From a virus (Duplodnaviria; Caudoviricetes), in IMG/VR virus record IMGVR_UViG_3300025137_005045: a stretch of 64,000 nucleotides of DNA; one strand, 5' to 3'. A program made the position numbers and the translations under genes. Each line of letters opens with the position of its first letter. The first letter of the stretch is position 1. Below are positions 337-17,214 of the stretch, piece after piece. The notes below the pieces were generated by a model, which saw only the letters and a list, made by a program, of their open reading frames with translations, had not been told where the DNA came from and ran no database searches.

Positions 337-345
337 TTTATAGAT

Positions 346-374
346 TACTCCCTGATAAATAATAGTAGGGAGTA
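346..374 (+). promoter_or_regulatory. Late-type promoter ATAAATA (355-361) inside an anti-Shine-Dalgarno hairpin upstream of csgF
   Basis: TACTCCCT 346-353 pairs with AGGGAGTA 367-374, which holds the SD. The same ATAAATA motif recurs at 5801, 9066, 11181, 14926, 17247, 49091, 56655, 58942. Confidence 0.7.
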
Positions 375-378
375 GCAA

Positions 379-861
379 ATGAAAATATTAGTATACATAC
401 TATTGGCTGTAAGTTTAAACATTTTGTTTATTGCTGGCGGTGGATTTGTAGGTACAGTAGTAGCACAACCAATGAATGATTTTACGTTCAAAAGTCCAGC
501 CTTTAACGGTAATGGATACTCCGCACACGTATTAACAATAGAAAATCAAGAATTTAGTCGTAAAAAAGCACTAGCTGAGAAGATCGAATCTGAATTAAAA
601 GACGCTGAGCGTGAAGCACAAAGCACTAATATTGCTAAGTTTATGAGTAACTTAGAATCTAGAATCTATGCACAAATATCACAAGATTTAGCTACAGCAA
701 TGTTTACAGACGATGAATCAAGTCCAACAAGTGGTACCTTAAGTTTTGAAGGTAATATTATTAACTGGAATAGGTCAGCAGATATTATCACCTTAGGGGT
801 CACAGACATTGTTGGAACAACAACCACAATTGAGATACCATTAGGTGATTTTACATTTTAA
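379..861 (+). CDS. csgF: Curli assembly protein CsgF-like
   Basis: Signal peptide then FTFKSPAFNGNG, like the CsgF F.NP.FGG N-terminus; directly upstream of csgG. Confidence 0.8.
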   Translation: MKILVYILLAVSLNILFIAGGGFVGTVVAQPMNDFTFKSPAFNGNGYSAHVLTIENQEFSRKKALAEKIESELKDAEREAQSTNIAKFMSNLESRIYAQISQDLATAMFTDDESSPTSGTLSFEGNIINWNRSADIITLGVTDIVGTTTTIEIPLGDFTF

Positions 862-2192
862 TGAAAATAATAATTATTTTATTGATGACTCTAACAATTT
901 TAGGTTGTGCAACAGGACAGGCTATAAAACAAACATATGATGTGCCAGTACTAATAGAGAAAAGCACTGCTAAAGAATTTGATACTATACCGCCTCCAGC
1001 ATTAGGTAAGATAGTTGTAGCAGTATACTCGTTTACTGACAAGACCGGACAAAGACGTCCAAGCAATACGCAGTCAAGTTTTAGTACAGCAGTTACACAA
1101 GGATCAGATGCTTTTTTACTTAAAGCACTTGGTGATGTAGGAAGAGGAAGATGGTTCACAGTGGTTGAACGTGGAGGACTGCAAAGTATAACGCAAGAAA
1201 GACAGATTATTAGACAAATGCGTGAAGCTTATGATGGAGTTGACGCAAAGAAATTAATGCCAATGAAGTTTGCTGGTATGTTGATAGAAGGTGGCATAAC
1301 AGGTTACGATACTTCAACAAGAAGTGGTGGTATGGGCATGCGTGTATTAGGCATAGGACCACAAACACAATTTAGTGAGGATATTATCACTGTAAGTTTG
1401 CGAGCAATAAGTGTTAACACCGGCGAAGTGATTGCCGCAGTTAATGTACAGAAAACAATATATTCTACAGCAGACAGTATAGCAGTATTAAAATTCTTCG
1501 ACAATGACACACAGATTTTTGAATTTGAATCGGGAATTACATTAAATGAGCCAGCAACATTGGCAGTTAAAACTACAGTCGAAGCGGCAGTGGTTGAATT
1601 AATTAAAGAAGGTGAGCGTAAGGATATATGGGACTACGGTGAATATCCTGAGACAGTAGAGATAGAGCCTACAATTGTTGAAGTGATAAAGGAAGTTGAG
1701 GTAGTAAGGGAAGTTGAGGTAATAAAGGAAGTTGAGGTAATAAAAGAAGTTGAAGTGATAAAAGAAGTTGAAGTGATAAAGGAAGTTGAGGTAATAAAAG
1801 AAGTGTATACTGAACTACCGCCACTACAGGAAGAAGAGTCTATGGCTACGGTACTCAGTGATAACATTGATAAAATAGTGGCACGTATGAAGGATGTAGA
1901 AGTGATCGACGAAACGGTGCTTGAAGAAATTGCACCACAAGACGAACTGACTGTAAGTGATTTACCGCCATTACAGGAAGAGGAGATTATAACTCCTGAT
2001 CTTTACTATGACAGTATAAAAGAAGAGTACACTGAACTACCGCCATTACAGGACGAGGAGTCTTTAATTTTAGAGCGTTACAATGATGATATCAGTGAAG
2101 ATATTGATAAAGTAGTGACACGTGTTCAGGATGAATTAGAAGAATATTATCAACGATGTTTAGAATATAATCATGAGGAGAACTGTCCGTAA
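861..2192 (+). CDS. csgG: Curli secretion channel CsgG-like lipoprotein with acidic repetitive C-terminal extension
   Basis: Lipobox ILGC; VAVYSFTDKTGQRRP..FSTAVTQG, WFTVVER, IEGGITGYD motifs. Confidence 0.9.
   Translation: MKIIIILLMTLTILGCATGQAIKQTYDVPVLIEKSTAKEFDTIPPPALGKIVVAVYSFTDKTGQRRPSNTQSSFSTAVTQGSDAFLLKALGDVGRGRWFTVVERGGLQSITQERQIIRQMREAYDGVDAKKLMPMKFAGMLIEGGITGYDTSTRSGGMGMRVLGIGPQTQFSEDIITVSLRAISVNTGEVIAAVNVQKTIYSTADSIAVLKFFDNDTQIFEFESGITLNEPATLAVKTTVEAAVVELIKEGERKDIWDYGEYPETVEIEPTIVEVIKEVEVVREVEVIKEVEVIKEVEVIKEVEVIKEVEVIKEVYTELPPLQEEESMATVLSDNIDKIVARMKDVEVIDETVLEEIAPQDELTVSDLPPLQEEEIITPDLYYDSIKEEYTELPPLQDEESLILERYNDDISEDIDKVVTRVQDELEEYYQRCLEYNHEENCP
1677..1802 (+). repeat. Seven 18-bp in-frame tandem repeats (VEVIKE) in csgG
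   Basis: GTTGA(A/G)GT(G/A)ATAAA(G/A)GAA x7, one copy encoding VEVVRE. Confidence 0.95.
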
Positions 2193-2252
2193 GTGATTTT
2201 TCAGACTTACAGGATAAAGTAGTAAAAATGCTTAATAAGCAAGGAAGGAAAA

Positions 2253-3164
2253 ATGAAATTTATTAAACTATTTGGAATGATGTTTCTTACGTTGTCAATG
2301 GCACATGCCGCTGACAATAGCATTTATATTGACCAAATTGGTAGTAGTTCTACCATTAATATAAAACAAGATGGATCAGGTAACAAAGTGTTTGGAGTAG
2401 GCGATTCTGAAGGAACTCCGGCCAAGTTTACAGGTTCATCGCAAACTGTTGATATTAGACAAGTGGGAGGTAGTAACATATTAGGTATTGATATGAACAC
2501 CACAGTCGTATCTGGTGTTGGTGTTGACCTCAAATACTACATCACAGGTTCGAACTCTGTAGCAAGTATTGATATCAATGGAGACGGCTTAGGAACAGCG
2601 GCTAACAATACCATTGACATTCAACAAACTGGTAACCTGAATGATTTAATCTTTGACTTACTAGGTACAGGAAATACAATTAATGCGGCAATGACAGGTG
2701 GTACTTTAAACGATCTTACTTTTGATATTGATGCTGATAGTTTAACTGTAGATGTTGCTGTTAGTGGAGGTGGCTCTAACAAAATTACATTAACACTTGG
2801 TTCAAGCAGTTCAGACATAGATATTACAACTGTCGGTGCTAGTAATCAAGTTACTTCTACACAAACTGGTGTAGGTGTATTTGACTTAGATGTCATTGCA
2901 AATAGCAGTAGTAACACAATCACAACTGTACAACGAGACGTTGGTAATAGTGGAACAGATATTAATATTACGTCCGCTGGATCTACCAATACAGTATCAA
3001 CTAGCCAAATTGGTTCCTCGGGTTCTTCAGGACATGAAATTGAAATAGATATTGCAGGAGCAAGCAACAACATAACAGTTACCCAGTCTGGAGGATTAGA
3101 AAATGATTCCAATATTGATATAACTGGTAGTAGTAATACTTGGACAATCACTCAGGAAGAATAA
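2253..3164 (+). CDS. Secreted curlin-repeat protein (CsgA/CsgB-like)
   Basis: Signal peptide ending AHA; many N-x-I-x-I-x-Q-x-G-x-x-N repeats; Gly/Ser/Thr/Asn-rich. Confidence 0.8.
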   Translation: MKFIKLFGMMFLTLSMAHAADNSIYIDQIGSSSTINIKQDGSGNKVFGVGDSEGTPAKFTGSSQTVDIRQVGGSNILGIDMNTTVVSGVGVDLKYYITGSNSVASIDINGDGLGTAANNTIDIQQTGNLNDLIFDLLGTGNTINAAMTGGTLNDLTFDIDADSLTVDVAVSGGGSNKITLTLGSSSSDIDITTVGASNQVTSTQTGVGVFDLDVIANSSSNTITTVQRDVGNSGTDINITSAGSTNTVSTSQIGSSGSSGHEIEIDIAGASNNITVTQSGGLENDSNIDITGSSNTWTITQEE

Positions 3165-3165
3165 A

Positions 3166-3336
3166 ATGCTTGAAGACGATGATGTTGTTATCATACACAG
3201 CTATCTAGGAGACGAGTCGTTATCGTTTGCAGGTTGGCTTAAGGTTGATCATAATATAGACGTTAACACTTTATCTTTAAAAGATCATGTTAAGTATCGT
3301 AAACTATGGACAAAAACTTCCCGCTATACTGGATAA
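3166..3336 (+). CDS. Small hypothetical protein (56 aa), not in ORF track
   Basis: ATG 1 nt after the upstream stop; fills the gap before FecR. Confidence 0.45.
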   Translation: MLEDDDVVIIHSYLGDESLSFAGWLKVDHNIDVNTLSLKDHVKYRKLWTKTSRYTG

Positions 3337-4424
3337 TATCAATGTTCCTTATAATGCCAACATTGGCATGGGGAGCCGTTGGAAAAATTTCTGCTCAACA
3401 GCATGATATAGGGAGCATTACTCGTAATAAAGAAGTACTCAAAGCTGATCTTAATGCAACGATAGAAATGCTTGATGCATTAAGAACTACTCAAGGCACT
3501 CTGGAAATAACTTTTAAAGATGACACAATAGTACAAATGACCGAAAGTGCCAGGATGACTGTTGATGATTTTGTTTATGATCCAAAGAACAAAGACGCAG
3601 GCAAATTAGCAATTAAAATAGCGGCTGGTACTGCCAGATATGCATCAGGACAAATTGCTAAAGACAAACCTCAAGCAGTCAAAATTAAAACTCCAACAGC
3701 AACAATATCAGTTCGTGGTACAGACTTTACAACAACAGTGGATGAGATTGGTGCTACTACAGTTATCTTATTACCTAGTTGTCCTTTTGGATGGGCATCT
3801 ATAGAAAGAGATTGTAAAACAGGTGCCATTGATGTTGAAAGCATGGGAGGTATTGTGTATATGGATAAACCATTTCAAGCCACTCGTGTTCCTAATCTAG
3901 ATTCTAAACCAACTCCTCCGGTTATTGTTGATTTGACAGAAGAAATGATTAAGAACATTCTTATTACTGGTACACCAAAAGAGATTGAAGCTGAAGAAGT
4001 TGGCCAGACTAATGTATCTGCATTAGATAATAATGCTCTTGATCAGGACCTGTTAGAAAATGAATTAGATAAAGCAGATGAACAATTGTATGTAAACAAA
4101 CTTAATCAAAACTTGTTAGAGAGAGACTTTCTGGTTAATGTGCTAGATATTTTAAATATGCAGTTAGCACTGGCACAAGAGAGAATACTATCTGTCTCAG
4201 AGAAGAATGAACTACTGCCTGATTTTATTCCTGACCAAGGTGTGACATTTACCACCGACGGTATAATAGTTGAATTGTGCATGGACACAACAGGTAGTGA
4301 CATAAGCTGTATTACAGTTCCTGAGAATCAAGAAACTACTATACGACAGATACAAGGTGCAGTTGATATAACCAACAGAGTAATTGATAATGGTACTACC
4401 ACCATTACCACGGAACAAAACTAA
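3306..4424 (+). CDS. FecR-domain periplasmic protein
   Basis: Signal peptide; LRTTQGTLEITFKDDTIVQMTESA, GTARYASG, KTPTATISVRGTDF motifs; true start may be 3342. Confidence 0.85.
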   Translation: MDKNFPLYWIISMFLIMPTLAWGAVGKISAQQHDIGSITRNKEVLKADLNATIEMLDALRTTQGTLEITFKDDTIVQMTESARMTVDDFVYDPKNKDAGKLAIKIAAGTARYASGQIAKDKPQAVKIKTPTATISVRGTDFTTTVDEIGATTVILLPSCPFGWASIERDCKTGAIDVESMGGIVYMDKPFQATRVPNLDSKPTPPVIVDLTEEMIKNILITGTPKEIEAEEVGQTNVSALDNNALDQDLLENELDKADEQLYVNKLNQNLLERDFLVNVLDILNMQLALAQERILSVSEKNELLPDFIPDQGVTFTTDGIIVELCMDTTGSDISCITVPENQETTIRQIQGAVDITNRVIDNGTTTITTEQN

Positions 4425-5773
4425 TGATTAGAATATTCACACTTGTATTTTTGTTGTTAATTATATCGAATTTTTTAACAACAAAAGCAGAGGCCGCAAC
4501 CGGACTAACTTATACAACTTTAGCTTGTGGGACCTCCTGGCCCTGCTCATTGACCGGTTCCGTTTTATCTACGGGAACTATTTCCACTGGAGACGTGAAT
4601 TTAAATTGGGGCAGTGGAGAAGTATTAGACTCTGGTAGAAGTGATTATGTTGTTGTAAAACTAGAAGGCTATTTTGTAATGCCAGGAACAGCAGGAACAA
4701 GTTATTCAGTAGAATTTACAAACCAAGATGATGATGGGTCAAGAACTATAATTGGTGGAACAACAGTCATTGATGATTGGTCTGGACTACACTCACCAGC
4801 AGACAGAAGTGGTACTATTACCTTAGTTGGTGGAACAACCTATTCATATCTGAGATATATGTCAGAATGGACTGGTGGTGCTGTATTAAGACAATTTTGG
4901 AAAATAGGTTCTGGCTCTAGAACTTATATGAATTTTGCAGACGACTTTACCACAACATCAAGTCCTGTAACATCAACAACCACCGGTACAAGTAGTGGTA
5001 TAAGTTCTAGTCAAGCAACTACAGTATCAACAGCAAGAACCAGAGCAACAGCGGCAAGTGCAGGTACTAACCCAGATAATTCTGTTTATATAGATCAAGC
5101 TGGTTCCAGTAATACTGTAGTGATTCTACAAGATGGTTCATCAGGTAATCATATACGAGGCATAGGAGTTGACAATGCATCTTTAGTAGGTGACTCCAAT
5201 GACATTGAGATTAAACAGGGTGCTGGTACATCAGGTGATGGAGTTAATTTAATTGAATTAATGGTTGATGGTGATACCAATGATCTAAAACTATATCAAG
5301 ATAGATACGACGATGGAACACCAGATGCAGACCCATCCGGTGATCATATCATTAAGCTGGATGTTGATGGTAATTTAAATGATATTGAAGTAATTCAACG
5401 AGCAAATGGTACAGTTGGTCATTTTGCTGAAATAGATATAACTGGCAATTCTAGTAATTTTGATATTCTACAAAAAGGACAATCCGAAAAACAATTGTTT
5501 ATAGATGTAACTGGTAATAGCAATATAATAGATGTTACACAACGAGACAGCTCATCTAAATTTGCGGATATAAAATTAATTGGAAATGGTCATGATGTGA
5601 CTGTACTACAAAAAGGAACAGGTGCTCATAACGCAACAATTGATTTAACTTTTGGTTCAGGAGCAAGCACTGTGGATTTAACACAACAAGGTAGTTCAAA
5701 TCAATCATATTCTCTAGAACAAATTTGTTACGATGTATCCGGGTGTTCAACTACAGTAACCCAAGGATATTAA
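4424..5773 (+). CDS. Secreted PA14 domain plus curlin-repeat protein
   Basis: Signal peptide; PA14-like NWGSG..V.LEGY..QDDDGSR..EWTGGA; Ser/Thr linker; C-terminal curlin repeats. Confidence 0.8.
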   Translation: MIRIFTLVFLLLIISNFLTTKAEAATGLTYTTLACGTSWPCSLTGSVLSTGTISTGDVNLNWGSGEVLDSGRSDYVVVKLEGYFVMPGTAGTSYSVEFTNQDDDGSRTIIGGTTVIDDWSGLHSPADRSGTITLVGGTTYSYLRYMSEWTGGAVLRQFWKIGSGSRTYMNFADDFTTTSSPVTSTTTGTSSGISSSQATTVSTARTRATAASAGTNPDNSVYIDQAGSSNTVVILQDGSSGNHIRGIGVDNASLVGDSNDIEIKQGAGTSGDGVNLIELMVDGDTNDLKLYQDRYDDGTPDADPSGDHIIKLDVDGNLNDIEVIQRANGTVGHFAEIDITGNSSNFDILQKGQSEKQLFIDVTGNSNIIDVTQRDSSSKFADIKLIGNGHDVTVLQKGTGAHNATIDLTFGSGASTVDLTQQGSSNQSYSLEQICYDVSGCSTTVTQGY

Positions 5774-5930: not shown

Positions 5931-5959
5931 TTGACAATACAAACTATACTAACTATAAT
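5931..5959 (+). promoter_or_regulatory. Consensus sigma70 promoter
   Basis: TTGACA-N17-TATAAT. Confidence 0.9.
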
Positions 5960-5983: not shown

Positions 5984-7030
5984 ATGACTAAAAAAACTTT
6001 AACCACTTTTTATGCTTTAGCATATCTATTAATATCAGGAGGAGTAATTGCACTTGCTAACCCTTCTTGGAATATAATATCAGTATTGATTGCTATACCA
6101 ATACTATATGGAATATTTGAAACTAAATTCTTTACGAATGATAGCAAAGTAAAATGGGCTCAGGCGTTCGTATATATTGGCAGTATAACAACATTAATAT
6201 TTCTATTTGATTGGACAATGTTATTATTAGGAATTGTTGCTGGATGGGTATTATTTGGAGTTGGAGTTAGTATATGTTTACATAAGTGGGCTTCACACAA
6301 GACATTTATACCTAAAAATAAATTTTGGAAAATAATTATTTTATTTTTTGGAACATTATGCACATTAGGTAGCACTATTAGTTGGGCCGCTGGACATAGA
6401 GAACACCATAGATTTACTGATAAGGATGGTGATCCGCATCGACCTGCAGGAAGTTTATGGCATAAAATTAAAGTTTACTTTTATTATTTCCCAACATATC
6501 CAATTAGCCCTATGTTAATTAAAGACCTTACAGTAGATCGTGATCATAAATGGTTTCATAGAAATTATTATAAAATCATATATGCGTACATATTAGGTTT
6601 GTTTTTAATTAATCCTAGCTATGCAGGATACTTTTATTTTATACCAGCGTTATATGTGTTTACAGGCATAAGTTGGGTAACAGTAATAGCACATATACCA
6701 ACCAACGGACGTTTTGGATTTAGAAAAGATACCTGGCGTATATACAAAAGTGATGATTACACATATAACAGTCACATTTGGCAATTCCTGTTAATGGGAG
6801 AAGGATATCATAATACACATCATAGTAGTCCATGGTTATGGAATAATGCTATATTACCTGGAGAGTTTGATATATCTGCAACAATTATTAAACATATAGG
6901 TATACCTAACGACAAACAACCTAAAGAATGGGATAGTGTTCGTCGAGGGCAGGAAATGTTTGATGAAATACAAGCAGAAGTTGCTAAAAATGAACAAGAC
7001 GATAGTCTAGCTGTACCAAAAGCAACATGA
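5984..7030 (+). CDS. Membrane fatty-acid desaturase (delta-9/Ole1-like)
   Basis: His boxes HKWASH, HREHH, GEGYHNTHH; hydrophobic segments. Confidence 0.9.
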   Translation: MTKKTLTTFYALAYLLISGGVIALANPSWNIISVLIAIPILYGIFETKFFTNDSKVKWAQAFVYIGSITTLIFLFDWTMLLLGIVAGWVLFGVGVSICLHKWASHKTFIPKNKFWKIIILFFGTLCTLGSTISWAAGHREHHRFTDKDGDPHRPAGSLWHKIKVYFYYFPTYPISPMLIKDLTVDRDHKWFHRNYYKIIYAYILGLFLINPSYAGYFYFIPALYVFTGISWVTVIAHIPTNGRFGFRKDTWRIYKSDDYTYNSHIWQFLLMGEGYHNTHHSSPWLWNNAILPGEFDISATIIKHIGIPNDKQPKEWDSVRRGQEMFDEIQAEVAKNEQDDSLAVPKAT

Positions 7031-7752
7031 GCAAACCTATTGCATTAGTAGGTCATAGAGCTGGAATGGATTTAATAATTGATATTACTGACGCTATGGG
7101 ACTAGAGATTGCTGGTATTTTTGACAAATATTTTTACGGTAATACAGACAGTACAGAAGGTATTCCTTTTATTGGAAACGAAGAAGAAATTACAGAAGAT
7201 GATATTGAAAAATATAATTTTGTTTTAACATCTAATTATGTTGGTCATGCAAAGTTAACTAATTATGAACACAATGGTGACAATCTAAGACAACGTCGTA
7301 TTAAAATATTTAAAGATCGCAATTTACCTACAGCTAATCTTATTCATCCTAATTCATATGTAGGAGATAAGACACATATTGGATCAAGTGTAATCATTGG
7401 TAGAGACTGCTATGTACGAGCTAATTCACATATAGGTGATTTTTGCTTTCTTGATAGCGGAGCGGCAGTGGCTCATGATGTACATCTTGGGGAAAATGTA
7501 ATTATAACTCCTTATAGTTTCGTTGCTGGTTTTGTTAATATTGGAAATAATGTAATGATTGGAGCAGGATCAAAGATAGTAAATGGTTATAGTGATAGAT
7601 CATTAAACATTGGAGACAATGTAAAAGTTATGGCCGGTTCAACAGTTTTTAAAGATGTGCCAGAAGGGAAATTTGTTACAAACACAGGTAAAATTTTACG
7701 AAGAATTGATTTAAAAAAGGAAAAGGAAAAGGAAAATGGATTACAAGATTAA
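7027..7752 (+). CDS. PglD/NeuD-like sugar acetyltransferase (hexapeptide repeat)
   Basis: N-terminal Rossmann-like region; NLIHP..; left-handed beta-helix repeats. Confidence 0.8.
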
Positions 7753-9022
7753 AGACTTAGATCTAGCAGACTGGGGTCATAAAGAAATAGCTATCGCAGA
7801 AACAGAAATGCCAGGATTAATAGCTGTTAGAGAAGAATTTAAGGATCAACAACCTTTAAAAGGTGCCCGAATTACAGGTAGCTTACACATGACAGTGCAA
7901 ACTGCTGTGCTAGTTGAAACTTTGGTTGCGTTAGGTGCTAGTGTACGCTGGAGTTCATGTAATATCTTTTCAACACAAGATCATGCCGCGGCCGCATTAG
8001 CAGAACAGGGAATTCCTGTATTTGCTTGGAAAGGCGAAACAGAAGAAGAGTATTGGTGGTGTATAGAACAAACACTAGAAGGACCCGATGGATGGAAACC
8101 AAATATATTACTAGACGACGGTCACGATCTAACTGGTTATATTATGGACAATCGTCCTGACTTACTGGATGATATTGTTGGAGTAACGGAAGAAACAACT
8201 ACAGGCATACACAAGATATTGGAACGTATTGAAAAAGGTAAAATGCTATTACCAGCTATCAATGTTAATGATTCTGTAACCAAAGCTAAGTTTGATAACT
8301 TGTATGGTTGTCGTGAAAGTTTAGTTGATGGTATTAAGCGTGCCACTGATGTTATGATAGCAGGTAAGACTGCTGTGGTAGCAGGCTACGGTGATGTTGG
8401 TAAAGGTTCAGCACAGGCATTGAAAGCATTATCAGCTCAGGTATGGATAACTGAAGTAGATCCAATTTGTGCTTTACAAGCCGCAATGGAAGGATTCAAA
8501 GTAGTCACCATGGACTATGCTAAAGATAAGGCAGACATCTTCGTAACAGCAACAGGCAACGTTGATGTTATTACTAAAGAACACATGATAGCAATGAAAA
8601 ACAATGCCATTGTTTGTAATATTGGACACTTTGATAGTGAAATTGATATTGCTGGTGTAAGTGATTTTGGATGGGATGAAATTAAACCACAAGTAGATCA
8701 TGTTACCTTGCCGAGTGGTAATAAAATTATTATTCTGGCAAGAGGTAGATTGATTAATCTAGGTTGTGCCACAGGACATCCTAGTTATGTTATGTCAAAC
8801 TCATTTACTAATCAAGTGCTAGCACAAATAGAAATGTTTAATAATCCTGACAGCTATGAAACAGGCAAACTCTATCTACTACCTAAACATCTAGATGAAA
8901 AAGTAGCAGAGCTACATCTGGCTAAAGTAGGTGCAGAATTAACCCGTTTAACGGATAAACAAGCTGAATATATTTCAGTTCCTGTTAACGGCCCTTATAA
9001 GGTGGAAACATATAGATATTAA
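7736..9022 (+). CDS. ahcY: S-adenosyl-L-homocysteine hydrolase
   Basis: [53 protein letters not shown]. Confidence 0.98.
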
Positions 9023-9103
9023 CACTATATGTTGTGCTTTTTTTAAACCCAGCCACTGGATTACGATAAATATTACAGTAATATTACATAGGAAACATTT
9101 TAT

Positions 9104-9883
9104 ATGAAAGCATTAAAAATAGCAGTATTATCAACAGTATTTTTAACGTCGGCTGTTGTAGCTGACGAACATAGCAGAACAAAAGCTACAGTAGATACTA
9201 GTAATAACTGGAACATATCAGTTACAGCTACTAGTGAGTATCTATTTCGTGGTCTAAAACAAACTCAAGGTGACCCTGCACTACAAGCTAGTATAGATTA
9301 TAACTTTGATGGTGGACTGTATGCCGGTGCATGGGCAAGTACAGTTAAATGGACCGAAGAAGGCTACATGAATAACAACGATGTAGAAACTAACTTTTTT
9401 GTAGGTTATTCAGACACACTTGGACAAACAGGTATTGGATATGACGTAGGTGTATTACAATACTATTATCCAGGTACTGTTAAAAATGGTGTTGCAGATA
9501 CTGACGCAACAGAAATTTATGCTGGTGTTAACAAAGACATACTTGGCATGAATTGGGCTGTTAAATATTCTCAAGTTGTCTCAGATGATGCTTGGGGAAT
9601 TGGAGATGCTGATGGTAGTCAATATGTTGAAGCAAATCTAACAGTTCCATTAACAGAAAAACTTTCAGCACTTGCTCATGTAGGTCGCTCTGAGTTTGAC
9701 GGTAATGGCAATGACGTATATGATTATACTGACTGGTCACTTGGTGCAGAATATGCAGTAGGCGATTATGTTACAGTAGGTGCTGGTTACTCAGACACAA
9801 ATACTAACGAAGCAAACTGGACCCTTAATGGTGAAGACCAAGGTAAAGGACAAACACTTGCTTGGTTAACATACGCATTCTAA
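9104..9883 (+). CDS. TIGR02001/TorF-family outer-membrane beta-barrel
   Basis: Signal peptide; SEYLFRGLKQT..PALQ..DY, YAGAWAS; terminal Phe. Confidence 0.85.
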   Translation: MKALKIAVLSTVFLTSAVVADEHSRTKATVDTSNNWNISVTATSEYLFRGLKQTQGDPALQASIDYNFDGGLYAGAWASTVKWTEEGYMNNNDVETNFFVGYSDTLGQTGIGYDVGVLQYYYPGTVKNGVADTDATEIYAGVNKDILGMNWAVKYSQVVSDDAWGIGDADGSQYVEANLTVPLTEKLSALAHVGRSEFDGNGNDVYDYTDWSLGAEYAVGDYVTVGAGYSDTNTNEANWTLNGEDQGKGQTLAWLTYAF

Positions 9884-9902
9884 ATTAAATTAGAATAAAT
9901 TG

Positions 9903-9928
9903 AAAGCACCTTTGGGTGCTTTTTTTTT
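9903..9928 (+). terminator. Rho-independent terminator
   Basis: AAAGCACC-TTTG-GGTGCTTT plus T run. Confidence 0.85.
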
Positions 9929-10036
9929 GAAAAAGAAACGATACAATAAAGATTACAGTTAGATTACAAAAATGCAATTAGTGCTTGCTTTTTCTTAAAA
10001 TCCTAGTAAAATATAGTTTTAAGTAATTAAATACAA

Positions 10037-10318
10037 TTGATGAAAACATTCAAATACTATTTCAACAAAACTATCATCACACTTTGTATTCTCTTCTTTT
10101 TCGTAATATGGTATCAAGTACTTTCTAAAATAATATGTAATTCATTTTGTGAAGTTGAGCAAGAAGTGCAAGGAGTTGTTATAGCATATGAGGATATGAC
10201 TCCTGAACAACGTCGAGCAGAATTTGAAAAACTAAAAGCACAAAGGACAGCAGAAAATGAAAAAAATAGTAGTATTACTAACACTACTGGCAGTGTCAAC
10301 ATTAGCTCTAGCAGATAA
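10037..10318 (+). CDS. Hypothetical membrane-anchored protein
   Basis: ORF with N-terminal TM helix. Confidence 0.55.
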   Translation: MMKTFKYYFNKTIITLCILFFFVIWYQVLSKIICNSFCEVEQEVQGVVIAYEDMTPEQRRAEFEKLKAQRTAENEKNSSITNTTGSVNISSSR

Positions 10319-10820
10319 ACCAGGATACTATTCAGCTATTAAGTTTAGTATAGAAGAAAGTAATACTGGAGGAAGTGACAGTACTAAATGGGCAGTCAAA
10401 TATGGTAAGCACATTAACAAACATCTTGATGCTGAATTATATACAAGAACAAAAGACAAAGACTCTGGTAGTAATGATACAAGAGTAGAAGCCGCAGTGA
10501 TTGGCAAGTACAAACTAACAGATGATTGGTCAACTAGTCTTAGAGTTGGTGCTGGTAACAAATATACACGAACTGATGACTTTGGTTATTGGACAGTTAC
10601 ACCAGCAGTAAAATATAAAATTACTGACAAGCTAAGTGCTAAACTTGGATATAGATTTCGTGACGCATTTGAAACAGAAAGACAACAGAATGACCAAACA
10701 ATTAAGTTAGGCATTGGCTACAAGTTAACCAGTGATGTATCTCTAGGTGCTGGCTATGACTGGAAACGTGGTGACAGTGATGCTGACGGTTTTGGAGTTG
10801 GTTTTAAATTCGAATTTTAA
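10257..10820 (+). CDS. Small outer-membrane beta-barrel/porin-like protein
   Basis: Signal peptide; alternating amphipathic strands; C-terminal GFKFEF. Confidence 0.75.
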   Translation: MKKIVVLLTLLAVSTLALADKPGYYSAIKFSIEESNTGGSDSTKWAVKYGKHINKHLDAELYTRTKDKDSGSNDTRVEAAVIGKYKLTDDWSTSLRVGAGNKYTRTDDFGYWTVTPAVKYKITDKLSAKLGYRFRDAFETERQQNDQTIKLGIGYKLTSDVSLGAGYDWKRGDSDADGFGVGFKFEF

Positions 10821-10863
10821 TAATATTGTATAATGGTAGGTGTTGAGTACTAAATAATATTAC

Positions 10864-10910
10864 AACGTTCATCCCACTGGGACGGAAGTAGGCATAAGCT
10901 GAAGGAACGC
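10864..10910 (+). ncRNA. Glutamine riboswitch (glnA motif)
   Basis: P1 CGTTC/GAACG, P2 TCCC/GGGA, CGGAAGTAG, P3 GGC/GCT, TGAAG: matches the glnA three-way-junction consensus. Confidence 0.85.
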
Positions 10911-10934
10911 TTCTTGTTAAAAGGAGGTAGCTTT

Positions 10935-11129
10935 ATGTATGCTAAAGAAAATAATACATCCACCATATTAAAAATTGCAACATTGTTAGATCTTGAAGTA
11001 AAAGAAGTAACTAAATTTCTTGAACTAATGCTAGACGGATACAACTTCACAGATGCCCTTAACGGTTGTCATTTGACCAGAGAGGACTGTGAACTAGTAT
11101 TAGCAGAACTTAAGAAAAGAAAAAAATAA
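10935..11129 (+). CDS. Small hypothetical protein (64 aa) downstream of the glutamine riboswitch
   Basis: SD AAGGAGG at 10921-10927 before ATG 10935. Confidence 0.75.
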   Translation: MYAKENNTSTILKIATLLDLEVKEVTKFLELMLDGYNFTDALNGCHLTREDCELVLAELKKRKK

Positions 11130-11144
11130 TATGGTACAACTTAG

Positions 11145-11170
11145 AAAAGCACTTTTAGGAGTGCTTTTTT
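11145..11170 (+). terminator. Rho-independent terminator
   Basis: AAAAGCACT-N6-AGTGCTTTT plus T run. Confidence 0.85.
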
Positions 11171-11242
11171 ATTGTCTATAATAAATACCTTTAAGCACAA
11201 GACCAAAAGTCTTATTTTACTAATTTTTCAAAAAGGTAATAT

Positions 11243-11353
11243 ATGGCCAATAAGAATTGCTACTGGAGACCAGAGACAGATGATGATATGGAATGGTTAA
11301 ACAGCCTGGCGAAACCCATAAAACCCATAAAACCCACTGATCAAAAGAAGTAG
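11243..11353 (+). CDS. Small peptide (36 aa), not in ORF track
   Basis: ATAAATA at 11181, SD AAGG; MANKNCYWRPETDDDMEWLNSLAKPIKPIKPTDQKK. Confidence 0.5.
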   Translation: MANKNCYWRPETDDDMEWLNSLAKPIKPIKPTDQKK

Positions 11354-11386
11354 ACATATCTAACTATAGACTATATAATATAACTT

Positions 11387-12145
11387 ATGATAGTCATAAC
11401 AGGTTACGGTTACGTAGGAAAAGCCATCGAATCGGCACTAATTCCACACGTTGATATAGCTATTGTTGATCCAATGATCAACGATAAACGTGTGTCTGAC
11501 TTTGATGCTGAAGCAGTAATCGTAGCTGTATCAACACCCAACACACTAGACGGTAGTTGTAACATGCAAAACGTATTTGATGTATTGGCAGATGTACCCG
11601 AAGATGTTCCTGTACTAATTAAATCAACTATATCAATAGAAGGATGGAACGAACTGACTGATAAGTATCCTGATCATAAGATTACATTTAGTCCAGAGTT
11701 TCTAAGAGCTAACACTGCAATCGAAGACTTTCACAATCAGGACTATGTATTTTTAAGTGGTGATAATCATAAGTATTGGGAAAAACTATTCTTAGATACT
11801 ATTAAGAAACCAAGTCAGATTTATTCAGCTGAAGAACTTATATTAGCTAAACTATTTCGGAACAGTTTTCTAGCAACCAAAGTTACATTCTTTAATCAGG
11901 TCAATGACTTATGTCAACGATTAGAGTTAGACTACGAGAAAGTCAGAAAGATTATCACAGATGATCAGCGTATAGGTACTGGCCATTCACAAGTTACAGA
12001 AGAACGTGGATATGGTGGACACTGCTTACCTAAGGATACAGAAGCACTATTAAAAAGTGCATTGCAACATGGATGTAGTATGAGCTTAATTCAAGAAGCA
12101 ATTCGATATAATAAACATATTAAGAAAAAAACTAATAAATATTGA
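11387..12145 (+). CDS. ugd: Short UDP-glucose/GDP-mannose dehydrogenase-family protein
   Basis: GYGYVG, FSPEFLR, KLFRNSFLATKV.F.N, GYGGHCLPKD. Confidence 0.85.
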   Translation: MIVITGYGYVGKAIESALIPHVDIAIVDPMINDKRVSDFDAEAVIVAVSTPNTLDGSCNMQNVFDVLADVPEDVPVLIKSTISIEGWNELTDKYPDHKITFSPEFLRANTAIEDFHNQDYVFLSGDNHKYWEKLFLDTIKKPSQIYSAEELILAKLFRNSFLATKVTFFNQVNDLCQRLELDYEKVRKIITDDQRIGTGHSQVTEERGYGGHCLPKDTEALLKSALQHGCSMSLIQEAIRYNKHIKKKTNKY

Positions 12146-12911
12146 TATGCTTACAACAATACTTTTTTTCGCTCTTTGTTATCACATACTATGGGCAACG
12201 TTCTCTATAGGTGTTCATCGACAACACATGCACACATATTGGAAATTAAATCCTGTGTTAGATCATTTATTTAGATTTATATTATGGCTAACTTGGGGAG
12301 CATTGAATTTTAAAAATGCAATACCAAATTTAGTAGCTCAGCATCGAAAACATCATGCACAAAGTGATCAATGGAACGATATTGATAATTATGATCCTGT
12401 AAGTCCTCATGTGTTTAGTTTAAGAAAGCTGTTAGATTTTTCAAAAATTCGTCCAGGAACACAATACTGGATAAATCCAAAAGATATATCAATTTGGGGT
12501 AAAGGTGCAACATCCTATGATGATTGGATAGAAAACAACATATATGTAAAATATCCTACATCAGGATTAACCATATTATGGATAATTGCTACTTTTTTAT
12601 TTGGATGGCCTGGTTTTATAATAGGTGGTTTATATAAATTTTCAATCAAAAAGGTAGTAGCATTCCATGCGGCATGTTTGCACGTAGTTGGATATAGAAC
12701 TCAAAAAGCTAAACTGTCTTCTGATAGATCGTTGAATACATTTCCGTTATCATTAGTAACTGCTGGAGAAGGATTGCATGGTAATCATCATGATAATTGT
12801 CGTCCAAGTAATTTTTCATTTCACTGGTGGGAATTAGATTTGGGTTATTGGTATGCTGTTGGTTTATCTAAGCTAAAACTTTTAAAATTTATCTAAAGAT
12901 ACAGAAGCACT
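12030..12911 (+). repeat. 19-bp direct repeat (18/19 identical) bracketing the ugd 3' end and a desaturase
   Basis: CTAAGGATACAGAAGCACT 12030-12048 vs CTAAAGATACAGAAGCACT 12893-12911. Confidence 0.8.
12147..12896 (+). CDS. Second membrane fatty-acid desaturase
   Basis: His boxes HRQHMH, HRKHH, GEGLHGNHH. Confidence 0.85.
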   Translation: MLTTILFFALCYHILWATFSIGVHRQHMHTYWKLNPVLDHLFRFILWLTWGALNFKNAIPNLVAQHRKHHAQSDQWNDIDNYDPVSPHVFSLRKLLDFSKIRPGTQYWINPKDISIWGKGATSYDDWIENNIYVKYPTSGLTILWIIATFLFGWPGFIIGGLYKFSIKKVVAFHAACLHVVGYRTQKAKLSSDRSLNTFPLSLVTAGEGLHGNHHDNCRPSNFSFHWWELDLGYWYAVGLSKLKLLKFI

Positions 12912-13051
12912 GTACAGTAATAGGTAAATCTTATTATCCCCATTTAAACATTCAACAAGCAAAACCTGTTAAAAATCAAATTACTATAGTATAATTAAAT
13001 AAGTACAATACTATGAGAAAGGAATTAATTATGGAAAGAGAAGAATAAATT

Positions 13052-14272
13052 ATGGATACTTTTTTTCTTGGCATTACACTTTTTACTTTGATTGTGTTGT
13101 CACTTGTAACGATAATTATTTTTGCTCGAAGTCAACTTGTCCAATCAGGTGAAGTTAATATTACTATCAATGGCGAAAAAAATATAAAAGTGCCTGCTGG
13201 TGGAAAGTTACTACAGGCCTTAGCTGGAGAAAAATTATTTGTTCCATCAGCTTGTGGAGGTGGTGGTACTTGTGCTCAGTGTAAGGTTAAAGTTCATTCA
13301 GGAGGAGGATCCATTCTCCCAACTGAAGAAGGACATATCAGTAAACGAGATGCGTCTTGTGGAGATAGGCTGTCATGTCAGGTAGCAGTAAAGCAGGACA
13401 TGGAAATTGAAGTACCTGAGGAAGTTTTTGGAGTCAGAAAGTGGGAATGTAAAGTATTAAGTAATGATAATGTTGCTACATTTATTAAAGAATTAATTAT
13501 AGAGCTCCCCAAAGGTGAAGATGTAAATTTTAAAGCAGGTGGATATATTCAAATTGAAGCACCTAGCTATAAACTTTCATATAAGGACTTTGATATTGGG
13601 AAGGAATATCACGAGGATTGGGATAGATTTAAGATATGGGATGTTACCTCTGAGGTAAATGAACCAATTGAAAGAGCATACTCTATGGCAAATTATCCTG
13701 AAGAAAAGGGTATAGTAATGCTAAATGTTCGAATTGCAACTCCACCTCCAGGTTCATCTGGAATTCCAGCTGGAAAAATGTCTTCTTATATTTTTAATTT
13801 GAAAAAGGGTGATGCAGTTACTATATCAGGACCCTTTGGTGAGTTCTTTGCACGTGAAACCAAAAAAGAAATGATTTTTATTGGTGGAGGTGCTGGTATG
13901 GCACCAATGAGAAGTCTTATTTTTGATCAGTTTAGGAGAATAAAATCTGACCGAAAAGCATCATTCTGGTATGGAGCGAGATCGAAAAAAGAAATGTTTT
14001 ATGTCGATGATTTTGATCAGATTCAAAAAGATAATGAAAACTTTTCTTGGCATGTTGCTTTGTCCGATTCACTTCCGGAAGATAAATGGAAAGGGCATAA
14101 GGGATATATTCATAATATACTTTTTGAACAGTATTTAAAAGATCATCCAGCTCCAGAGGATTGTGAGTACTACCTATGTGGGCCACCTATAATGAATCAA
14201 TCAGTGGTTAATATGTTAATAGATCTGGGAGTCGATCGTGAAGATATTTTACTTGATGATTTTGGTGGGTAG
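13052..14272 (+). CDS. nqrF: Na+-translocating NADH:quinone oxidoreductase subunit F
   Basis: N-terminal TM anchor; [12 protein letters not shown] 2Fe-2S motif; RAYSMAN; [11 protein letters not shown]; YLCGPP; C-terminal LDDFGG. Confidence 0.97.
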
Positions 14273-15162: not shown

Positions 15163-17214
15163 ATGCCTACAAAATTACTGACCAAGGTGTTAGTTTCACC
15201 CTGGACAGCTCTTATTACTCTCACGATCATATTGTACATAGGCGTTCAACAACCTCAATTCATTGAAAGTGTTAAGTTAAGATACTTTGATACCTTAATC
15301 ACAAGCCAACCAGAACAACAAACAACTATATCAACAGTTAACATTGACGAATCCGCATTAGAAAAATATGGACAATGGCCTTTTAGTCGTGATATCTACG
15401 CAGACATAATTAAGGACTTGTATGAACGTGGTGCTGGACTAGTGGTATTCAATGTGCTTATGCCTGAACAGGATAGACTGGGCAAAGATTCAGTGCTAGC
15501 TAAAACAATGGAAGAATATCCAGTTGTACTTCCGAACTATGGTAGTGATAAAACAAAGAATATGCCACGTAATCCCGGTGCTGTTTCGATAGGTGACCCT
15601 GAAGGCAAAGTAGTGGAGTATGATGGCATTGTGGCAAGTATACCTGAACTAGAAAATCTAGCTTACGGTACAGGTATCGTAACAACATTCCCTGAAGTAG
15701 ATGGCGTTACTCGTAGATTGCCAATGGTCATTAAGAGTGGAGACACACTATATCCAAGTATGGGTTTAGAAGTTCTACGTATACTAGCAGGTGATCCTAG
15801 TTTCCAGATTAAATTCTCAGACATAGGTATTGATAAGTTACGTGTACCACAGTTTGGTATTTTATCAACAGACCCTATTGGGCGTGTATGGATTGATTAT
15901 CAGCAACGAGCTCAAGCATACAGTTTAACTGAACTTCCAAATACATTTGACAGTGGAATAGTTATTGTGGGTACGAGTGCTCCGGGTATTAGTAATCCAA
16001 TATCAACCAGTCGTGGCGAAGTATGGCCGCAAGATATGCAGGCCTCAGTGATAGCTACACTAGCAAGTGGTATCAATATCCAACGTCCAGACTGGGCATC
16101 GGGTAGCGAACTACTTGCTCTGGTAGTTTTAAGTATTATATTACTGTTTTTAACACGTTGGGTATATGTGGGCTTAGGAGTAGGAATAGTAGCACTAGCG
16201 GCGATTGTGCCGGTCACACAGTACCTTTATGCAACATATTTGTTCTTGTTTGATGCTACATTAATGTTAGGTGGATTAACAATTATACTGCTACATGCTT
16301 ACGGTGTTAAGTTTGTTTCAGAGTTCTTACAGAAGCAGGCAATCAAGAAACAGTTTGCTGGTTATGCGTCGCCGACGGTGGTTAAACTGCTACAAGAAAA
16401 TCCAGCATTAATTAAAGATGGTATGAAGCGGGAGATTTCAATTTGCTTTTCAGACTTACGTGGATTTACACCCTTAGGTGAAAGTTTTGGTGATGACGTA
16501 AAAGGGCTTACACAAATTATGAATAGCTATATGGATGCCATTACACAACCTATTCTGGATAGTAACGGTATGGTTATCAAGTATATTGGTGATGCTAGTA
16601 TGCACGTACATAATGCTCCCAAAGATGATCCTAATCATGCTAAAAGTGCTGTTCAAACAGGACTTAACATGATTGAAGCTGTTAGAAAGTTCAATGATAA
16701 AATTGTAGCCAAAGGCCGTCCACCGATAGGTATGGGTGCTGGCATCAACACCGGACTTGGATATCTAGGAGAAATGGGCTCAACAGCAAGACATAGTTAT
16801 GATGTACTAGGTGATGCTGTATCAACAGCGGCACGTATTGAAAGCAAGTGTAAAGAATACGGATGTTTATTATTGGTAGGTGAAGCCACTTACGATAAAA
16901 CCAAGGATGACTTCTTTTATCTGCAGGTAGACGAACTAGCAGTCAAAGGTAAAACAGTCGGCATTAGAATATACACAGTTTTAGATACTCCATTCAATGC
17001 GTATTACAATAGTCGAAAAAAACATCAAGAAATGTATGCATCATATCAAGCACAAGAGTTTGATAAAGCAATTAAAATGTGTCAAAATTTAAAGTCACAC
17101 TTTGAAGGACAAATGACTAGCTATTACGACATGTGGATTGAACGTTGCGAGTATATGCTAACACAAGATTTGCCTAAAGATTGGAACGGAGTCTTTATAG
17201 CAACTACCAAATAA
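15163..17214 (+). CDS. CHASE2-domain class III adenylate/guanylate cyclase
   Basis: NIDESALEKYGQWPFSR (CHASE2); TM block; FSDLRGFT, KYIGDA, GAGINTG, YDVLGDAVSTAARIES. Confidence 0.95.
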   Translation: MPTKLLTKVLVSPWTALITLTIILYIGVQQPQFIESVKLRYFDTLITSQPEQQTTISTVNIDESALEKYGQWPFSRDIYADIIKDLYERGAGLVVFNVLMPEQDRLGKDSVLAKTMEEYPVVLPNYGSDKTKNMPRNPGAVSIGDPEGKVVEYDGIVASIPELENLAYGTGIVTTFPEVDGVTRRLPMVIKSGDTLYPSMGLEVLRILAGDPSFQIKFSDIGIDKLRVPQFGILSTDPIGRVWIDYQQRAQAYSLTELPNTFDSGIVIVGTSAPGISNPISTSRGEVWPQDMQASVIATLASGINIQRPDWASGSELLALVVLSIILLFLTRWVYVGLGVGIVALAAIVPVTQYLYATYLFLFDATLMLGGLTIILLHAYGVKFVSEFLQKQAIKKQFAGYASPTVVKLLQENPALIKDGMKREISICFSDLRGFTPLGESFGDDVKGLTQIMNSYMDAITQPILDSNGMVIKYIGDASMHVHNAPKDDPNHAKSAVQTGLNMIEAVRKFNDKIVAKGRPPIGMGAGINTGLGYLGEMGSTARHSYDVLGDAVSTAARIESKCKEYGCLLLVGEATYDKTKDDFFYLQVDELAVKGKTVGIRIYTVLDTPFNAYYNSRKKHQEMYASYQAQEFDKAIKMCQNLKSHFEGQMTSYYDMWIERCEYMLTQDLPKDWNGVFIATTK

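Follow-up and report, generated by a model that had tools for sequence, protein, structure and literature searches.

Type VIII secretion (curli) modules are known from phages of SAR11 and OM43, cells that have no curli genes of their own. Zaragoza-Solas et al (2020) proposed that they act in "sibling capture" (PMC7029224), and Buchholz et al (2022), who described phage Melnitz as lacking csgA/B, proposed a role in lysis timing (PMC9004378). In podo- and myo-pelagiphages, Wittmers et al (2022) identified CsgA/B-like fibre proteins together with FecR, a second fibre gene and an adenylate cyclase, to which the podophages add a histidine kinase (PMC9599517). Phage curli genes were present at all 65 GOV2.0 stations and expressed in Pacific metatranscriptomes, and the roles proposed for them comprise aggregation ("sibling capture"), superinfection shielding, import and the promotion of recombination (PMC9599517). 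Here we analyse a 64,000-nt stretch of viral DNA (IMG/VR record IMGVR_UViG_3300025137_005045), the whole of which is referred to as the window, with a curli block at positions 379-5773 of the + strand. This locus is one more example of the module published for SAR11 and OM43 phages. We put the probability at roughly 0.6 that it is a pelagiphage-type type VIII secretion module of alphaproteobacterial style, carried by a marine T4-like phage and exporting fibres by the mechanism proposed below.

The curli block is composed of five tightly packed, co-oriented genes, encoding CsgF, CsgG, the curlin-repeat protein Cur1, a FecR-like protein and Cur2, in which curlin repeats are joined to a PA14 domain. 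All five products have N-terminal hydrophobic export leaders, which we judged by reading them directly from the sequence. The leaders end at VVA/QP (CsgF), AHA/AD (Cur1), AWG/AV (FecR-like) and AEA/AT (Cur2), and CsgG has the lipobox ILGC. The coordinates, the Pfam matches and these leaders bear out an initial annotation of the window, which had described five co-oriented genes with export signals. That annotation overlooked the sixth conserved gene of the module, encoding a CHASE2 cyclase, which lies downstream and is separated from the curli block by a 9.4-kb insert. The phage context of the locus is evident from genes for a clamp loader (phrog_168, 7e-75), a fragment of DNA polymerase and a structural protein of the virion elsewhere in the window. 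Near-identical DNA, among the matches listed, comes from metagenome runs of seawater or other marine samples in 12 studies, possibly including the window's own source.

A scan of viral contigs for CsgG identified 78 loci, of which 42 extend for at least 7 kb after csgG (the long loci). The order csgF-csgG-curlin-FecR-(curlin)-adenylate cyclase in the window matches that of phage HTVC008M, Melnitz and the 78 related viral loci; the window cyclase is displaced, and its homologues in most loci lie close behind the last module gene. The FecR-like gene is present in all 42 long loci, the cyclase in 41, the first curlin in 39 and the second curlin in 33. The survey of phage csgFG loci for curlin genes that had been proposed with the initial annotation thereby came out in favour of curlins beside the pore.

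Cur1 taken alone scored under the Curlin_rpt threshold of Pfam (E 0.008, 16.5 bits, for a cut-off of 20.7 bits). A family profile of 39 sequences (Cur1 and 38 homologues from related viral contigs) matched solved curli subunits in the PDB (8c50, 6e-20; E. coli CsgA 8enq, 6.4e-6) and, in an hhalign comparison with the Cur2 family, was collinear with its curlin part over the full length (99.7%, E 1.2e-25). Based on these two matches, we assign both Cur1 and Cur2 to the curlin family. Cur1 features about 12 strand-turn-strand repeats, in which the Q and G columns are invariant and the N column is invariant or nearly so, and it is likely the major fibre subunit. Cur2 is composed of a signal peptide, a PA14 lectin-type head (residues 28-161), a disordered Ser/Thr linker (176-216) and nine curlin repeats (219-448), the final one with a Cys-x5-Cys motif. 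It was matched directly by E. coli CsgB (phmmer, 2e-4), and its AlphaFold2 (AF2) model (mean predicted local distance difference test score, pLDDT, 75.6) shows a beta-sandwich head, a linker and nine strand-turn-strand units. In an all-against-representatives comparison, the top VIA match of the repeat part (209-448) was the curli subunit 8c50 (Z 19.8, 25% identity). The beta-solenoid check suggested for these proteins thus pointed, for Cur2, to a curli subunit, and the accompanying suggestion of a hidden Markov model search was borne out for CsgF, CsgG and Cur2, with Cur1 on its own failing the cut-off and recovered through the family profile. Sequence, profile and fold evidence together back the earlier claim that this phage has a CsgG/CsgF pore plus two curlin-repeat substrates.

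Both Cur1 and the curlin domain of Cur2 begin with their best-conserved repeat (DNS-I/V-YIDQxGSS...), and both proteins end in ...T-I/V-TQ-x, like E. coli CsgA and CsgB. The shared first repeat and the shared end would fit head-to-tail stacking of Cur1 and Cur2 in one fibre, and the pair looks like a plain subunit and a lectin-headed subunit.

In Foldseek comparisons, the Cur2 head matched the PA14 domain of the RsgI sensor, the yeast flocculins Flo1/Flo5, the Epa adhesins and the sugar-binding domain of a Marinomonas RTX-adhesin. The PA14 fold was recovered with probability 1.00 to Flo5, Epa and the Marinomonas domain, and with VIA Z values of 14-18 (6qe7, Z 17.9). Judged by its model, the head is predicted to adopt a lectin fold of the flocculin/adhesin type. 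Its DDG motif is invariant across ten homologues from phages, and RsgI3 has DDG at the aligned position; the PA14 Asp-Asp(-Gly) motif serves calcium-dependent sugar binding in lectins of the flocculin, Epa and RTX-adhesin type. PA14 heads of the Cur2 type occur in 8 of the 42 long loci, and gp018 of HTVC008M, a hypothetical protein by its annotation, combines PA14 and curlin in the same way as Cur2. Wittmers et al (2022) do not mention PA14 anywhere in their text (PMC9599517). Three relatives (L012:11365-12951, L013:11399-13678 and L014:11341-13734) have a second curlin with an N-terminus of 250-550 aa that has no match in Pfam. Because this sequence stands where PA14 stands in Cur2, the head of the second curlin seems swappable.

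The space between Cur1 and the FecR-like gene contains a small open reading frame (ORF) without a Pfam match. It is conserved at the protein level, with conservative changes, in the related locus L005, and may be a real gene of this clade. The relatives L003 and L004 have a different small ORF in this slot. We also considered a regulatory RNA in the 141-bp gap and rejected it, as the fold was no better than those of shuffled sequences (z -0.9); with an unremarkable RNA fold and a conserved ORF, the gap is better accounted for by the latter.

The CsgF N-terminal motif FTFKSPAFNGNGYS was aligned with FQFRNPNFGGNPNN of E. coli, so that the N-terminus FTFKSPAFNGN corresponds to FQFRNPNFGGN. A strict pattern for this motif was found in 50 of 79 viral CsgF ORFs. 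In CsgG:CsgF structures, the N-terminal segment of CsgF inserts into the CsgG barrel. Searches with E. coli CsgF structures gave no phmmer hit to the window CsgF, and the link between the two consists of the Pfam profile and the motif alignment only. The CsgG core spans approximately residues 1-262, and residues 4-261 match E. coli CsgG structures (4e-46). In the HMMER alignment, the loop ...SSFSTAV corresponds to ...SNFSTAV of E. coli, and the loop Phe is thus kept; Tyr51, Asn55 and Phe56 form the pore constriction of E. coli CsgG.

Beyond its core, the window CsgG has an acidic C-terminal tail of ~180 aa with no match in Pfam. An 18-bp tandem repeat within this tail translates to (EVEVIK)n, and the tail also holds three ELPPLQEEE units and one Cys pair. 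It is absent from the CsgG of the closest relatives (80-87% identical), and CsgG proteins longer than ~340 aa occur in 11 of the 42 long loci. By analogy with the structure of E. coli CsgG, such tails would be periplasmic. In a more distant clade (L012-L025, contigs up to 214 kb), a linker rich in Pro, Glu and Lys connects CsgG to a bacterial SH3 domain at the C-terminus, for example in L014:8001-9170 (SH3_4, 1e-7). We know of no previous description of this CsgG-SH3 architecture.

The earlier observation that csgC, csgD and csgE are absent from the window was confirmed, as a weak negative. E. coli K-12 CsgC, CsgD and CsgE gave no phmmer match among the window's six-frame ORFs of at least 40 aa, and Pfam gave none among the ORFs of the block. 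The same search matched only CsgG (1e-48) and, through CsgB, Cur2 (2e-4), and this negative carries little weight because E. coli CsgF likewise missed the window CsgF. CsgE, CsgC/CsgH and CsgD are also missing from alphaproteobacterial and other phage versions (PMC9599517), and are therefore not defining for the wider family.

The AF2 model of the FecR-like protein (pLDDT 77.5) is composed of a beta domain (residues 25-221), an acidic disordered or helical linker (222-300) and a small beta domain (310-372). The first beta domain is similar to the periplasmic signalling domain of two anti-sigma regulators, PupR (6ovm; Z 14.8, root-mean-square deviation 2.8 over 136 residues) and BDI_1681 (Z 13.5). 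We identified no cytoplasmic anti-sigma domain in the FecR-like protein, whose sole hydrophobic segment is the cleavable-looking N-terminal leader, and no gene for a TonB-dependent transducer in the curli block. With the anti-sigma part, the anchor and the transducer all lacking, we regard it as an exported FecR-domain protein and not as an iron regulator of the FecR type. The C-terminal beta domain gave weak Ig-like matches only (Z about 3.6). A curlin repeat at the C-terminus (...TTITTEQN) was rejected, as hhalign gave only a local match (probability 2%, E 0.02). Kinship to the "cell surface anchoring domain" 5ix9, indicated by Foldseek, was also rejected; on re-alignment it maps to residues 22-119 with Z 6.5, which is too weak.

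The cyclase has Pfam matches to CHASE2 (5e-35) and Guanylate_cyc (1.2e-17) and belongs with phrog_35576 (2.7e-195); its hydrophobic segments 5-28 and 310-385 flank the CHASE2 domain. A complex prediction for residues 24-215 of the FecR-like protein with the periplasmic CHASE2 domain (29-310) scored 0.01 against a mark of 0.32, which speaks neither for nor against binding.

Two groups emerged when bacteria were scanned with a FecR-like profile, using one genome per prokaryote species: phage-like contigs with the full module and true bacterial FecR-like genes. Among the true bacterial loci, a CHASE2 cyclase lies within 10 kb in 11 of 63 and CsgG is nearby in none. Pairs of this kind have been characterised in Burkholderia, where LysM-FecR and a CHASE2 kinase form an operon of two adjacent genes (PMC5192318). 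The FecR-domain protein SMc02177 of S. meliloti was studied together with the CHASE2 cyclase CyaD1 (PMC5498481). Because such pairs recur in bacteria without CsgG, we interpret the FecR-like protein and the cyclase as partners in a sensor that has become attached to the secretion genes. The genes for SMc02177 and CyaD1 are presumably adjacent in the S. meliloti genome.

Two contigs of Caulobacteraceae metagenome-assembled genomes (L093 and L094; GC content 0.54-0.57) carry a complete cassette of csgF, csgG, curlin, curlin, FecR-like gene and CHASE2 cyclase. In L094 (7089-13109) the cassette is flanked by methylmalonyl-CoA mutase, acyl-CoA dehydrogenase, amidohydrolase and TetR genes. Surrounded by such ordinary metabolic genes, it is considered chromosomal. 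This cassette is a cellular version of the "phage" module and offers a tractable cellular model.

Immediately upstream of csgF, the RNA is predicted to fold into a hairpin (-13.5 kcal/mol, z -4.0), and none of 200 shuffled sequences folds equally well. The loop carries GATAAATA (354-361), a T4-type late-promoter motif 18 nt before the csgF start, and the 3' arm contains the csgF Shine-Dalgarno sequence GGGAG (368-372). The full late-promoter consensus is TATAAATA, and marine T4-like phages have a less strict first base (NATAAATA). The motif's 7-base core, ATAAATA, is depleted in the window (14 sites, with 39.8 +/- 5.9 expected), and the sites, among them 355, 9066, 34390 (- strand), 49091 and 56655, lie mostly just upstream of start codons, consistent with candidate T4-type late promoters. 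This core matches the T4 late-promoter sequence TATAAAT employed by Buchholz et al (2022) (PMC9004378).

The layout with the promoter in the loop is found before csgF in at least nine related, diverged loci, in which the stem sequences are quite different. In HTVC008M a plain TATAAATA precedes the csgF start codon by 12 nt, and in Melnitz no ATAAATA occurs within 120 nt 5' of the csgF ORF. Similar hairpin loops are present in the window at other ATAAATA sites (34390, - strand, z -4.4; 46813, - strand; and 14926), which makes the hairpin a habit of this phage and not a curli-specific element. T4 uses such a device for e, soc and I-TevI: early transcripts that read through into these genes form the hairpin and mask the ribosome-binding site, and late transcripts, which start inside the hairpin, are translated. 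From the same layout here, the curli block is predicted to be made late, with a promoter-in-hairpin switch that probably confines its expression to late infection. The three published accounts do not mention this for curli genes (PMC7029224; PMC9004378; PMC9599517).

Table 1. Positions of the curli module, its control elements and the genes of the insert in the window.
Feature	Position	Strand	Description
Hairpin	345-375	+	10-bp stem, 345-354 pairs with 366-375; RNA fold
csgF	379-861	+	160 aa; secreted cap and assembly factor of the pore; Pfam CsgF PF10614, 2.6e-12
csgG	861-2192	+	443 aa; outer-membrane lipoprotein pore; Pfam CsgG PF03783, 1.1e-48
18-bp tandem repeat in csgG tail	1677-1804	+	7.1 copies, 88% matches, score 179 (Tandem Repeats Finder)
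Cur1	2253-3164	+	303 aa; secreted curlin-repeat protein; Curlin_rpt E 0.008, sub-threshold
Small ORF	3166-3336	+	56 aa, no signal peptide; overlaps start of the FecR-like gene
FecR-like	3306-4424	+	372 aa; secreted; Pfam FecR PF04773, 1.7e-9
Cur2	4424-5773	+	449 aa; Pfam PA14, 3.3e-6, and Curlin_rpt, 1e-11
Sigma-70 consensus promoter	5931-5959	+	TTGACA-17-TATAAT, 12/12 consensus matches
Fatty-acid desaturase	5984-7030		Insert
Hexapeptide acyltransferase	7027-7752		Insert
S-adenosylhomocysteine hydrolase	7736-9022		Insert
Gcw_chp outer-membrane barrel protein	9104-9883		Insert; 2e-41
Small outer-membrane protein, beta-barrel	10257-10820		Insert
UDP-glucose dehydrogenase, truncated-looking	11387-12145		Insert
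Fer2/FAD/NAD ferredoxin-reductase-type protein	13052-14272		Insert
CHASE2 adenylate/guanylate cyclase	15163-17214	+	683 aa; sixth module gene

The 3' limit of the curli block is marked by a perfect sigma-70 promoter, which lies directly 5' of the desaturase gene and starts the next transcription unit. The genes that follow (5984-14272) amount to an envelope and lipid gene load that is large for a phage. Elsewhere in the window, a late-promoter motif precedes by 12 nt the gene (49103-52000) for a 965-aa protein with a He_PIG Ig-like domain; the central part of this protein shows 27% identity to jumbo-phage peptidases of the S8 family (Atu_ph07 and Phosso).

Based on the gene content, this phage module would export fibres in the following way. 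The curli block would be translated late, from a promoter located within the hairpin by which the csgF ribosome-binding site would otherwise be concealed. Sec would carry the block proteins into the periplasm, where the lipoprotein CsgG, with the N-terminus of CsgF inserted, would provide the outer-membrane channel. Cur1 would leave unfolded and stack as beta-solenoid amyloid fibres on the cell surface, and Cur2 would enter the same fibre via its homologous curlin domain, presenting the PA14 lectin head on the flexible Ser/Thr linker. The resulting coat would be sticky for glycans, and might hold adjacent cells together or else mask both surface and debris. The FecR-like protein and the CHASE2 cyclase would form a separate cAMP-making envelope-sensor pair grafted onto the secretion genes.

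Several points weigh against this mechanism. Late expression would leave little time for a benefit from aggregation, and the promoter and hairpin from which late timing is predicted are sequence predictions and are not specific to this operon. In the window CsgG, Ser replaces the E. coli Asn beside the conserved Phe and also the Tyr four residues before it (HMMER alignment). Mature Cur1 opens directly with its first repeat and has no Gly-rich, N22-like targeting segment; no CsgE and no chaperone of the CsgC/H type was matched; and a PA14 head, once folded, could not get through the pore and would therefore have to fold outside. We found no RNA runs containing the window stretch. Melnitz-infected cultures showed no clumping in cytograms or transmission electron microscopy (PMC9004378), and the three published accounts contain no experiment showing phage fibres, amyloid or CsgG-dependent export (PMC7029224; PMC9004378; PMC9599517).

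The conservation of the FecR-like and cyclase genes raises the question of whether secretion is the main function. The module could instead be mainly a trans-envelope sensor, in which CsgG/CsgF and the surface curlins serve as an antenna or secretion-status reporter, the FecR-like protein relays to the CHASE2 cyclase, and cAMP is the output, acting on host physiology or lysis timing. In the long loci, FecR (42/42) and the cyclase (41/42) are steadier than the second curlin; the periplasmic signalling domain of PupR, to which the FecR-like domain is similar, binds an outer-membrane partner in cell-surface signalling; FecR/CHASE2 pairs recur in bacteria; and all six genes are kept together in Caulobacteraceae chromosomes. 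However, the bacterial pairs occur without CsgG nearby, so the phage pair may be just a neighbouring unit. The window cyclase, moreover, is 9.4 kb distant, with at least one more promoter in between, and no cAMP receptor was identified in the phage. We therefore consider a sensor unlikely, if worth keeping in view. A combination of both functions is rather unlikely: a late "flocculation" device with feedback, whose PA14-tipped amyloid fibres would tether host cells or coat debris before lysis. In such a device, the FecR-like protein and CHASE2 would sense secretion or contact, cAMP would set the time of lysis, and the Cur2 heads and CsgG tails (acidic repeats here, SH3b in relatives) would tune the system to the host envelope.

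The remaining explanations give the curlins a lesser part or another one. CsgG/CsgF might have been repurposed as a lysis-timing or permeabilising channel, comparable to a pinholin or secretin, with the repeat proteins accessory or vestigial. For Melnitz, such a role was put forward on the basis of modelled structures and the neighbouring genes (PMC9004378), and the late-promoter layout fits a late-acting envelope function. Yet curlins with signal peptides and conserved Gln/Asn/Gly ladders lie beside the pore in 39 of the 42 long loci, joined by a second in 33, and this retention argues for a cargo under selection. An outer-membrane pore ~1 nm wide cannot itself depolarise the inner membrane, and the cassette also occurs in the chromosomes of bacteria, in which it does not serve lysis; we regard a lysis channel as distinctly improbable. 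The same conserved curlins, and the PA14 head, would be left unexplained by an ungated import/export channel for small solutes or cofactors, which has been offered for phage CsgG (PMC9599517). That no CsgE-type gate is encoded, either among the window matches or in the published versions (PMC9599517), would agree with such a channel, as would the two outer-membrane barrel genes nearby (9104-9883 and 10257-10820), and the FecR-like protein hints at iron. But an iron-regulator role is unsupported for a FecR-like protein with neither anti-sigma part nor anchor and with no TonB-dependent transducer; we regard a solute channel as very unlikely. Finally, it is scarcely credible that Cur1 and Cur2 belong to the virion, as fibres or decoration, and have no connection with the pore. 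The Cur2 model does resemble phage tailspikes as well in its beta-solenoid (Z 11-12), and a late promoter precedes the block, but the top matches in both sequence and structure are curli subunits and not tailspikes. Cur1 and Cur2 have Sec signal peptides and sit among csgG and the exported FecR-like gene, and homologous cassettes are found in bacterial chromosomes.

The fibre-export reading that we favour coincides in its essentials with the proposal in the initial annotation, which was reasonable and is a rediscovery of a published hypothesis. Its premise, that phage csgF/csgG were known without curlin cargo, is outdated: the annotation given to HTVC008M gp016 in 2013 was curlin-associated / CsgB, two proteins in the Melnitz record are labelled "curlin associated repeat", and Wittmers et al (2022) also name curlins (PMC9599517). 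The additions made here are modest and comprise the displaced cyclase, the explicit PA14 head, the hairpin with the late promoter, the CsgG tails, the proposal, backed by bacterial precedents, that FecR and CHASE2 form a sensor pair, and the chromosomal cassettes of Caulobacteraceae. If fibre export does occur, a sticky amyloid made by phages would change aggregation, sinking, DNA exchange and phage encounter of the most abundant ocean bacteria. The idea of phage curli in the ocean is already published; the window sharpens what to test and leaves the picture unchanged.

The FecR/CHASE2 pairs of bacteria share with the phage a secreted FecR-domain protein beside a membrane sensor with a periplasmic CHASE2 domain. 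They differ from the phage pair in that CsgG/CsgF and curlins are not nearby, and the output domain of the Burkholderia pair is a histidine kinase. With the curli systems of E. coli and Salmonella (csgBAC-csgDEFG), the window shares the CsgG core, the N-terminal motif of CsgF and repeats ending ...V/I-T-Q-x. It differs from them in having no CsgC/D/E match, no N22-like segment, longer subunits (about 9-12 repeats), a lectin-fused subunit, an attached FecR-like protein and CHASE2 cyclase, and a single co-oriented block. The best match of both phage curlins is the CsgA of Pontibacter korlensis (8c50; PMC10192328), a many-repeat curlin solenoid which, unlike Cur2, is a bacterial fibre subunit with no PA14 head.

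The closest systems are those of other phages. Melnitz, a T4-like myophage, has the same six-gene order (gp99-104) and a CsgG that is 44% identical, whereas its second curlin lacks the PA14 head. The pelagiphage modules (HTVC008M and podophages of the HTVC023P type) are, like the window, of marine origin; a histidine kinase upstream is not recognisable in the window. Unlike HTVC008M, the window has a 9.4-kb insert before the cyclase and a 180-aa acidic tandem-repeat tail on CsgG. In HTVC008M, gp014-019 encode csgF, csgG, a curlin, a FecR-domain protein, a second curlin and an adenylate cyclase in the same order as the window, and its CsgG is 46% identical.

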